Below, in pieces: positions 2,883 through 2,965 of a DNA stretch of 64,000 nucleotides (positions are counted from its first letter, which is position 1; each line of letters starts with the position of its first letter). A program made the translations under genes and the position numbers. The notes under the pieces are model-generated. The model worked only from the letters and a program-made list of their open reading frames with translations. It searched no databases and was not told the origin of the DNA. The DNA is from Escherichia phage vB_EcoM-VpaE1: the sequence record KM657822, one strand, 5' to 3'.

Positions 2883-2965
2883 ATGGGACGATGTTAAGAC
2901 TCTAAGGCATGAGCAACGGCTTCCAACACCGTTTCAAAGGGGTTCAACTCCTCCGTCCCATGCCA
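2883..2965 (+). tRNA. tRNA-like gene, atypical D region (possible Trp CCA)
   Basis: Perfect acceptor ATGGGAC/GTCCCAT, T-loop TTCAACT, CCA; candidate anticodon loop ttccaac; 7 extra nt in 5' half. Confidence 0.35.

Follow-up and report, generated by a model that had tools for sequence, protein, structure and literature searches.

Irregular tRNAs known as 'E-loop' tRNAs (Mukai 2017) have an additional loop inserted between acceptor stem and D stem (PMC5389517; PMC7609411). They occur in soil metatranscriptome polycistrons attributed to Acidobacteria, bear odd anticodons, and are linked to allo-tRNAs and toxin-antitoxin loci (PMC5389517; PMC7609411), and in vitro neither GlyRS nor ThrRS of E. 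coli charged them (PMC5389517). For tRNA-Trp, the identity set of E. coli TrpRS consists of the anticodon and G73 together with the minor elements A1:U72 and G5:C68 (PMC12135181), and the contacts described in the TrpRS co-crystal paper are those with the anticodon and the acceptor arm, the D-arm being unmentioned (PMC12135181). The D stem of tRNA-Trp is also the site of the Hirsh G24A substitution, which accelerates accommodation and allows the CCA anticodon to read UGA (PMC11805395). Among phages with tRNA genes, the genome paper of Felix O1 gives a tRNA list from which Trp is absent (PMC3185647).

We describe here an 83-nt gene in the tRNA array of a Felix O1-type phage, of which no earlier description was found in the literature searched. 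Its nearest structural precedent is the 'E-loop' tRNAs, which have an extra unpaired segment at the same place and are likewise missed by standard annotation. Whereas allo-tRNAs and 'E-loop' tRNAs are defined by an 8/4 or 9/3 branch and a long variable arm, the 83-nt gene has a 7/5 branch and a short variable loop, and, unlike 'E-loop' tRNAs, it carries the full TrpRS identity set and resides in the array of a virulent enterobacterial phage.

Genomic context and parts of the gene

The window, that is, the whole stretch of 64,000 nt from Escherichia phage vB_EcoM-VpaE1 (KM657822) that was analysed, belongs to a Felix O1-type myovirus (Felixounavirus-like), and its tRNA cluster is 96-98% identical to those of Shigella phage JK55, Salmonella phage Mushroom, and others. 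The complete genome of Mushroom has 22 annotated tRNAs, every one of them inside the cluster and none a tRNA-Trp. ARAGORN found no other Trp tRNA within the 64-kb window, and the 83-nt element is the sole Trp-anticodon tRNA-like gene of the array. A gap of 142 nt separates it from the preceding tRNA-Arg(TCT) and one of 13 nt from the following tRNA-Ser(TGA), and 24 of the 25 recognised array tRNAs have an encoded CCA. Elsewhere in the array, at about 1946-1980, a T-arm-like remnant shows that tRNA debris does occur. The array and the parts of the gene are listed below.

1080..5917, + strand: tRNA array with 25 recognised tRNAs for 19 amino acids and none for Trp (ARAGORN, Rfam)
2883..2965, + strand: non-canonical tRNA-Trp(CCA) gene with encoded CCA, 83 nt (hand parse of the sequence)
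2883..2889, + strand: acceptor stem, 5' strand ATGGGAC, in perfect pairing with 2955-2961
2890..2898, + strand: extra segment GATGTTAAG, a 9-nt acceptor-to-D connector against 2 nt in canonical tRNAs
2899..2902, + strand: D stem, 5' strand, an A.C mismatch followed by CTC (2900-2902), which pairs with GAG at 2911-2913
2903..2910, + strand: D-loop TAAGGCAT with the conserved GG (equivalents of G18 and G19), invariant in the alignment
2911..2914, + strand: D stem, 3' strand GAGC, identical in E. coli tRNA-Trp
2915..2919, + strand: anticodon stem, 5' strand AACGG, paired with 2929-2933
2920..2928, + strand: anticodon loop CTTCCAACA, a 7-nt TTCCAAC with a closing C.A mismatch and the anticodon CCA at 2923-2925
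2929..2933, + strand: anticodon stem, 3' strand CCGTT, paired with AACGG
2934..2937, + strand: variable loop TCAA, 4 nt, invariant
2938..2954, + strand: T-arm, AGGGG (2938-2942), loop TTCAACT, and CCTCC (2950-2954), with four pairs and an A.C mismatch
2955..2961, + strand: acceptor stem, 3' strand GTCCCAT, paired with ATGGGAC
2962..2965, + strand: discriminator G73 (G2962) and encoded CCA (2963-2965), invariant

In gene order these parts read ATGGGAC-GATGTTAAG-ACTC-TAAGGCAT-GAGC-AACGG-CTTCCAACA-CCGTT-TCAA-AGGGG-TTCAACT-CCTCC-GTCCCAT-G-CCA. An earlier note on this DNA, made from the sequence alone, had pointed to a 7-bp acceptor stem, a T-arm, and a terminal CCA, all of which the parse recovers, and to about 7 extra nt in the 5' half, which correspond to the 9-nt connector GATGTTAAG in place of the usual 2 nt. 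Its remark that there is no clean D-stem is right insofar as the D-arm is abnormal; a D stem is nonetheless present, short (3 bp) and covarying.

Because the variable loop is short, the gene is a class I tRNA in form. It has the 7-bp acceptor stem with discriminator and CCA, a D-arm with GG, an anticodon arm, and a T-arm expected of that class, but lacks the 2-nt connector (positions 8 and 9) and is not recognised by curated models. At positions 31 and 39 it has C.A or C.C with five Watson-Crick anticodon-stem pairs outside, and the anticodon loop can therefore alternatively be drawn with 9 nt. With canonical class I tRNA-Trp the gene has in common the 7/5 acceptor/T branch, G73 and CCA, A1:U72, G5:C68, the YU-CCA-A anticodon loop, the short variable loop, the D-loop GG, and the T-loop TTCRA, and in E. 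coli trpT the D stem 3' strand GAGC is followed by A, as it is here. It differs from canonical tRNA-Trp in having A10.C25 for G10-C25, A49.C65, a 3-bp D stem, and the 9-nt connector. Erwinia phage SunLIRen (Kolesnikvirus) has, at a different slot, a canonical tRNA-Trp whose anticodon-arm core CGGCCTCCAAAACCG is identical to that of the common family variant and which, by hand parse, also has the C31.A39 mismatch. The resemblance in primary sequence suggests that the 83-nt gene descended from an ordinary phage tRNA-Trp, and its ancestor was almost certainly a class I bacterial-type tRNA-Trp.

tRNA finders and in silico deletion

In the window, ARAGORN called 25 tRNAs and Rfam at the gathering score (29 bits or more for the tRNA model RF00005) called 23, and the 83-nt gene is in neither set; the curated models also leave it uncalled in five homologous loci. 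Under a permissive Rfam scan its best match was tRNA-Sec (16.9 bits, E=0.63), together with a Tymovirus tRNA-like element (10.1 bits), and neither match is meaningful. When the ARAGORN thresholds were relaxed from 80% to 50%, the native sequence returned a spurious 'tRNA-Pyl' (cta) and undefined 4-base anticodons, and never the Trp fold. The tRNA-Sec model (RF01852), the best though insignificant match, can accommodate an anticodon stem of 6 bp and a D-arm of greater length. A tRNA-Sec assignment was rejected, since the gene has no long variable arm, no 8/5 or 9/4 branch, and no UCA, and scores 16.9 bits against a gathering score of 47; where tRNA-Sec has a 13-bp 8/5 branch and a 6-bp D stem, the gene has a 7/5 branch, a 4-nt variable loop, and the anticodon CCA.

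Deletion of any one of five overlapping 6-nt blocks (2891-2901), each alone, led ARAGORN to call a 77-78-nt tRNA-Trp(CCA), and deletion of one 5-nt block likewise gave a tRNA-Trp(CCA) call. The earlier note had held that a tRNA reading would fall if no tRNA model scored above threshold and no mature transcript was detected; no model does score the native sequence above threshold, and removal of 6 nt nonetheless restores the ARAGORN tRNA-Trp call. Because the models fail on the insertion only, their thresholds are a poor test here, and the 83-nt gene shows a systematic blind spot of tRNA finders. A family model built for the element (R1) scores it at 109.8 bits. The thermodynamic fold of the single sequence also gives the cloverleaf, with an unexceptional z of -1.56. 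As the case from the single sequence is thus weak, both by folding and by the finders, the claim beyond chance rests on comparison.

Homologues and distribution

The 238-nt interval between tRNA-Arg and tRNA-Ser has matches in 255 phage records, 228 of which cover 80% or more of its length. Among the 60 records listed, none has a tRNA annotated under the match; what is found there instead is no annotation, a hypothetical protein, or the neighbouring HNH gene. The element occurs in Felixounavirus, in Mooglevirus (divergent copies in Michonne, Sf16, Sf18, and ESh22), in Suspvirus (divergent copies in EcSzw_1 and mistaenkt), and in Yersinia phage P778 and Pectobacterium phage Arno18, two distant copies in which similarity to the window is limited to the gene itself (2885-2958). 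The order Arg(TCT)-element-Ser(TGA) is constant in these phages and in metagenome contigs, and scans of IMG/VR and metagenomes yielded further variants, all of them flanked as Arg(TCT)-x-Ser(TGA). In the acceptor stem of L189, a metagenome homologue of low coverage, there are two mismatches. Since the homologues are mostly close relatives, sequence diversity is limited.

When 185,579 bacterial and archaeal genomes (one per species) were scanned for a structured pattern, 106 stretches matched, none of them tRNA-like; with no bacterial or archaeal member found, the family looks restricted to phages. Scans of IMG/VR and metagenomes anchored on the 3' half returned only sequences that also have the GATGTTAAG 5' half, and thus no insertion-free ancestor, and an exact 14-mer scan of IMG/VR gave mostly chance matches.

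Covariation and invariant positions

Two alignments were scored for compensatory change. For the first, 16 distinct sequences were aligned with plain MAFFT and compared with the hand-drawn cloverleaf; 8 of 21 pairs show changes on both sides, while all six slid controls show none. The second comprises 20 distinct sequences aligned by a covariance model built from the MAFFT alignment, and is hence model-fitted; here 9 of 21 pairs are compensatory, against 0-2 in slid controls, a count reached in 0 of 500 shuffles. Across the 20 sequences, 89.5% of cells form a pair, against 78.6% in shuffles.

No helix of the four lacks a compensatory pair. The acceptor stem is paired in 98.6% of cells, with two compensatory pairs: 1-72 is A-U in 13 sequences, G-U in four, and G-C in three, and 2-71 alternates between U-A and C-G. 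Two pairs of the D stem are compensatory (12-23 is U-A, A-U, or G-C; 13-22 is C-G or U-A), as are four of the five pairs of the anticodon stem, which is paired in 100% of sequences, and, in the T stem, 50-64, where the Sf18 lineage has U-A for G-C. None of the 20 sequences departs from U33, A37, or the anticodon CCA, and the T-loop core, the GG of the D-loop, the variable loop, G73, the terminal CCA, G5:C68, and the 9-nt extra segment are likewise the same in every one. In the T-loop, TTC and A58 do not vary, and TTCRA is conserved. Three mismatches are conserved as well, A10.C25 (2899/2914), C31.A/C39, and A49.C65, with C31.A39 becoming C.C in P778 and Arno18.

Because the MAFFT result agrees with that of the model-fitted alignment, readings of the element as a pseudogene, a promoter, a protein-coding sequence, or a chance fold are contradicted by the covariation, and on comparative grounds we regard the 83-nt element, with very little doubt, as a selected tRNA-shaped RNA gene. 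The earlier note had left open whether it was a non-canonical tRNA, a pseudo-tRNA, or a tRNA-derived RNA. The constant decoding positions and the compensatory changes at 9 of 21 pairs in 20 homologues speak for the first of these, and structure-preserving substitutions, which indicate purifying selection on the fold, speak against the second.

A decaying pseudogene, in which a former tRNA-Trp was disabled by the 6-7-nt insertion and is now drifting, would agree with the rejection by tRNA finders, the mismatches at 10.25, 31.39, and 49.65, the imperfect acceptor stem of L189, and the existence of the T-arm-like remnant at about 1946-1980 in the same array. Drift would not, however, be expected to leave compensatory double substitutions at 9 of 21 pairs with pairing in 89.5% of cells, nor to keep all function-critical loops invariant. 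One slot has been retained over several genera and about 230 genomes, and the mismatches are themselves conserved and non-random, so that this reading is very improbable.

That the conserved feature is no RNA gene but lies at the DNA or protein level (a small ORF, a promoter, or the target of a homing endonuclease) is still harder to credit and is given hardly any weight here. A weak promoter-like TTGAGA-17-AATTAT does end at 2879, but such matches are at chance level (2 found, 2.0 expected). The window copy contains a 4-codon mini-ORF (ATG GGA CGA TGT TAA), the start codon or frame of which is lost in P778 and Arno18. Several GenBank records place hypothetical ORFs or the HNH gene over or beside the region, and in some phages an HNH endonuclease cassette substitutes for the element (see below). 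The 9-mer GATGTTAAG, tried as a repeated DNA motif, has 22 matches in the window where 20.9 are expected and so shows no enrichment, and none of the DNA- or protein-level readings explains compensatory changes in four helices.

Replacement by a second tRNA-Trp

About 23 relatives (wV8 and about 22 others, including Suspvirus SUSP1 and the Mooglevirus members Sf19 and SFPB) have a 71-nt tRNA-Trp(CCA) at the slot. Homology of these phages to the window ends exactly at 2882 (breakpoint 2882/2883), and the order that follows is the 71-nt tRNA-Trp, a 134-aa HNH endonuclease (phrog_2255, 1.5e-45), and the same tRNA-Ser. The 71-nt allele shares with the 83-nt gene the slot, the anticodon CCA, G73, the encoded CCA, and an abnormal D-arm, but is unrelated in sequence and scores only 30.5 bits with R1. 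Its D-arm is shortened and poorly paired, whereas that of the 83-nt gene is expanded, and the copy in wV8 is detected by ARAGORN and the allele is annotated in some records, neither of which applies to the 83-nt gene. The 71-nt allele resembles a canonical Vibrio phage tRNA-Trp, than which it is 3 nt shorter, the difference lying in the D-arm region.

Counted by record, the 83-nt form is present in 228 and the 71-nt form in about 23, and nearly every genome of the group would therefore have one form or the other; in this record-level comparison no genome with both forms was seen. The replacement of one tRNA-Trp by another at the same slot argues well, if indirectly, that the 83-nt RNA does the job of a tRNA-Trp. 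Homing endonucleases occur in the tRNA regions of T4 and T5, and by analogy the linked HNH gene suggests that the exchange may have occurred by intronless homing.

Trp identity and proposed function

The Trp identity that the earlier note had read from the anticodon loop is borne out by comparison, as CCA, U33, A37, G73, and the 3' CCA are constant in 20 distinct homologues, the gene is the only one in the array with a Trp anticodon, and relatives hold a different tRNA-Trp at the same slot. All TrpRS identity elements are present, namely C34, C35, and A36 (2923-2925), G73 (G2962), A1:U72 (A2883:T2961), and G5:C68 (G2887:C2957), and charging by host TrpRS is therefore plausible. In window ORFs, TGG makes up 1.24% of codons, an ordinary frequency, and the host gene trpT is single, with a median of 1 place per genome and presence in 5426 of 5426 genomes. 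From the host identity set, the single host trpT, and the use of UGG, we infer a Trp decoder supplied by the phage, and we consider it reasonably probable that the 83-nt gene acts as a charged Trp decoder. With such a gene as its missing twentieth member, the phage tRNA set would cover all 20 amino acids.

RNase P and the enzymes that trim the 3' end depend on the acceptor/T minihelix, on the elbow formed by GG with TTCRA, and on an encoded CCA. On the proposed scheme, the 83-nt gene would be transcribed within the tRNA array, and the precursor would be trimmed at the acceptor/T-arm minihelix like those of the neighbouring tRNAs. In the cloverleaf adopted by the product, the acceptor stem would have 7 bp, the D stem 3 bp, and the anticodon stem 5 bp, the T-arm would have four pairs plus an A.C mismatch, and the elbow of the L-shape would be kept by the D-loop GG and the T-loop TTCRA. 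The 6-7 extra nt on the 5' side of the D-arm would be accommodated as a looped-out 9-nt connector or as a small pseudoknot extending the D helix, and would be tolerated by TrpRS and the ribosome. Host TrpRS would charge the tRNA via the anticodon, G73, A1:U72, and G5:C68, and decoding of UGG by the 83-nt tRNA would complete the phage set. We know of no characterised functional precedent for a 9-nt connector among bacterial elongator tRNAs. Points against a functional tRNA-Trp are that no detector calls it, that the D stem has three pairs, that three mismatches are conserved, that L189 is imperfect, and that the diversity of the homologues is limited.

A tRNA-shaped RNA with no decoding role, which would act as a regulator or would draw off a tRNA-targeting defence nuclease of the host or a tRNA-binding protein as a decoy or sponge, is an unlikely alternative on balance, but one with several observations in its favour. 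The extra segment is invariant, and such a loop would offer a specific handle; tRNA geometry is violated by the 9-nt connector, the 3-bp D stem, and the three conserved mismatches; irregular tRNAs with an extra loop at the same site were not chargeable in vitro (PMC5389517); and there are documented host defences that cleave tRNAs, tRNA-Trp among them, as well as phage tRNAs by which such defences are countered (PMC12916289; PMC11555353). A decoy would nonetheless not require that U33-CCA-A37 be invariant along with G73 and G5:C68 of the TrpRS identity set, nor does that role account for the element being the sole Trp-type gene in an otherwise complete set and being exchanged for another tRNA-Trp in relatives. 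Nor does the connector exceed other unpaired columns in conservation (P about 0.05). We retain the charged Trp decoder as the preferred reading.

The extra segment and its possible conformation

The invariance of GATGTTAAG has a probability of about 0.01 when set against all columns and about 0.05 against other unpaired columns, which is notable but not extreme. Three drawings of this region are possible. In the first, the extra segment may be a free 9-nt connector. In the second, a 3-nt connector may precede a G2893-C2914 pair that restores G10-C25 and leaves a 6-nt bulge; G2893 and C2914 are both invariant. In the third, AUG (2891-2893) may pair with the last three bases of the D-loop, CAU (2908-2910), as an H-type pseudoknot. 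All 20 sequences allow these AUG/CAU pairs, and variation is one-sided, with two variable partners that undergo pair-preserving transitions only, a pattern that is weakly consistent with pairing. Together, AUG/CAU and CUC/GAG could form a quasi-continuous 6-bp D helix on the strand CAUGAG, possibly a tRNA architecture not described before.

Two other pairings were rejected. A D stem of TGTT (2892-2895) with AGCA (2912-2915), which would have a 2-nt connector and a 16-nt D-loop, is contradicted by the partner of T2895, which in 8 of 20 sequences is replaced by T or C with no compensating change, and also by the covariation of column 35 with column 53 of the anticodon stem. This TGTT/AGCA stem is the one used by ARAGORN after some of the deletions described above. 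A pairing of TAAGAC with GTCTTA of the 3' trailer (2968-2973) is not kept in ESh22, P778, and Arno18.

Since both tRNA-Trp alleles at the slot are aberrant in the D-arm, the abnormality may be an adaptation rather than a tolerated blemish, although we find this doubtful. The Hirsh UGA-suppressor tRNA-Trp offers a parallel, in that a change in the D-arm/hinge far from the anticodon is found there as in the 83-nt gene, with the difference that the Hirsh change is one base substitution that alters decoding fidelity and the change here is a 6-7-nt insertion. By analogy, the 83-nt gene might encode a 'fast, loose' tRNA-Trp that changes the decoding of UGG and UGA during infection. A check for programmed UGA read-through, made with a simple script on the 71 window ORFs of 80 aa or more, found an in-frame extension of 40 codons or more in none of the 15 that end in TGA. 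Alternatively, the altered core or extra loop might allow the tRNA to escape a host tRNA-directed defence nuclease while still being chargeable.

Significance

Felix O1-type phages are classics of phage typing and phage therapy, and hundreds of their genomes have been sequenced; the 83-nt element would complete their tRNA set. Its function is probably ordinary. If it is functional, as seems likely, it would represent a natural tRNA of a bacterial system with a 9-nt acceptor-to-D connector, and would provide a test of how much expansion of the tRNA core is tolerated by TrpRS, EF-Tu, and the ribosome, as well as a possible scaffold for tRNA engineering. The exchange of two odd tRNA-Trp alleles at one slot, one of them accompanied by an HNH gene, points to a homing-driven turnover of tRNA genes in these phages.

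Alternative alleles at the Trp slot and possibly at the Arg(TCT) slot

The 83-nt element, a non-canonical tRNA-Trp(CCA), is swapped in about 23 Felix O1-type phages for an unrelated 71-nt tRNA-Trp(CCA), which has a short, badly paired D-arm and is accompanied by an HNH endonuclease gene (134 aa, phrog_2255). The replacement is placed as follows:

L003 (phage wV8) 2647-3136: 71-nt tRNA-Trp and HNH gene; breakpoint at window 2882/2883

Together, the 71-nt gene and its endonuclease look like a homing cassette that brings its own tRNA allele. ARAGORN called the wV8 copy of the 71-nt gene and made no call for its variants in SUSP1 (Suspvirus) or SFPB (Mooglevirus).

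At the neighboring slot the window encodes a canonical tRNA-Arg(TCT) (2664-2740), and wV8 and other phages hold an 82-nt tRNA-like RNA there:

L003 2416-2497: 82-nt tRNA-like RNA
L021 1894-1975: the same
L104 2090-2171: the same
L157 8215-8296: the same

As parsed by hand, this RNA has a 7-bp acceptor stem, a discriminator A followed by CCA, 7 nt in place of a D-arm, TCT in the anticodon arm, a variable region of approximately 23 nt, and a normal T-arm. It was not called by ARAGORN and is annotated as a generic "tRNA" in one record. The Arg(TCT) position would be a second slot holding a non-canonical alternative allele.

Variation within the 83-nt family

Comparison of the anticodon loop (window 2921-2927) with its homologues reveals two common variants, TTCCAAC, which is carried by the window and contains C38, and CTCCAAA, which resembles E. 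coli trpT. MiaA needs an A36-A37-A38 motif for i6A37 modification; if this requirement is correct, only the CTCCAAA variant would be modified.

The most divergent member of the family is found in a metagenome contig:

L189 (JACCDR010813160.1) 1339-1422: divergent homologue of the 83-nt element

Its D stem (ACGT/ACGC) and anticodon stem (ACTTG/CAAGT) are fully compensated and GATGTTAAG is kept intact, while the acceptor stem contains two mismatches, C3.U70 and U2.U71, that could reflect either a sequencing error in this low-coverage contig or a degenerate copy.

A separate locus, L141 (IMG/VR 3300021400_001310, 3268-3360), carries a clean tRNA-Trp 3' half (CTCCAAA-ACCGCG...GGGTTCAAGTCC...GCCCCT-G-CCA) that bears no relation to the 83-nt family and is preceded by non-tRNA sequence. 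ARAGORN found no tRNA at this locus, which could be a split or intron-containing tRNA gene.

Other features of the tRNA array

A near-consensus sigma-70 promoter-like site (TTGACA-17-TATAGT, 11/12) lies at window 2430-2458, between tRNA-Ile and tRNA-Arg(TCT), and may serve as an internal promoter driving the array segment that contains the Trp gene. tRNA-Asp and tRNA-Lys are separated by 429 nt, a stretch that holds a T-arm-like motif, GAAGG-TTCGATT-CCTTC (about 1946-1980), with neither a matching acceptor 5' strand nor CCA, which may be a relic of a lost tRNA.

tRNA and tRNA-like loci of Erwinia phage SunLIRen

The following two loci occur in this Kolesnikvirus (L173):

L173 about 3750-3916: uncalled tRNA-like RNA of approximately 165 nt, directly after tRNA-Arg(TCT)
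L173 4450-4525: canonical tRNA-Trp, parsed by hand

The tRNA-like RNA pairs GGGTGAT with ATCACTC (7 pairs, including one G.U), has the T-arm AGAGG-TTCGAAT-CCTTA, ends in G followed by CCA, and is interrupted internally by a very large insertion. Parsing by hand shows that the canonical tRNA-Trp does not encode CCA (its 3' end reads G-TCA) and its anticodon stem carries the mismatches U27.C43 and C31.A39. The latter also closes the anticodon loop of the 83-nt element; it thus appears to characterize the lineage of Ounavirinae tRNA-Trp genes and not the 83-nt form in particular.
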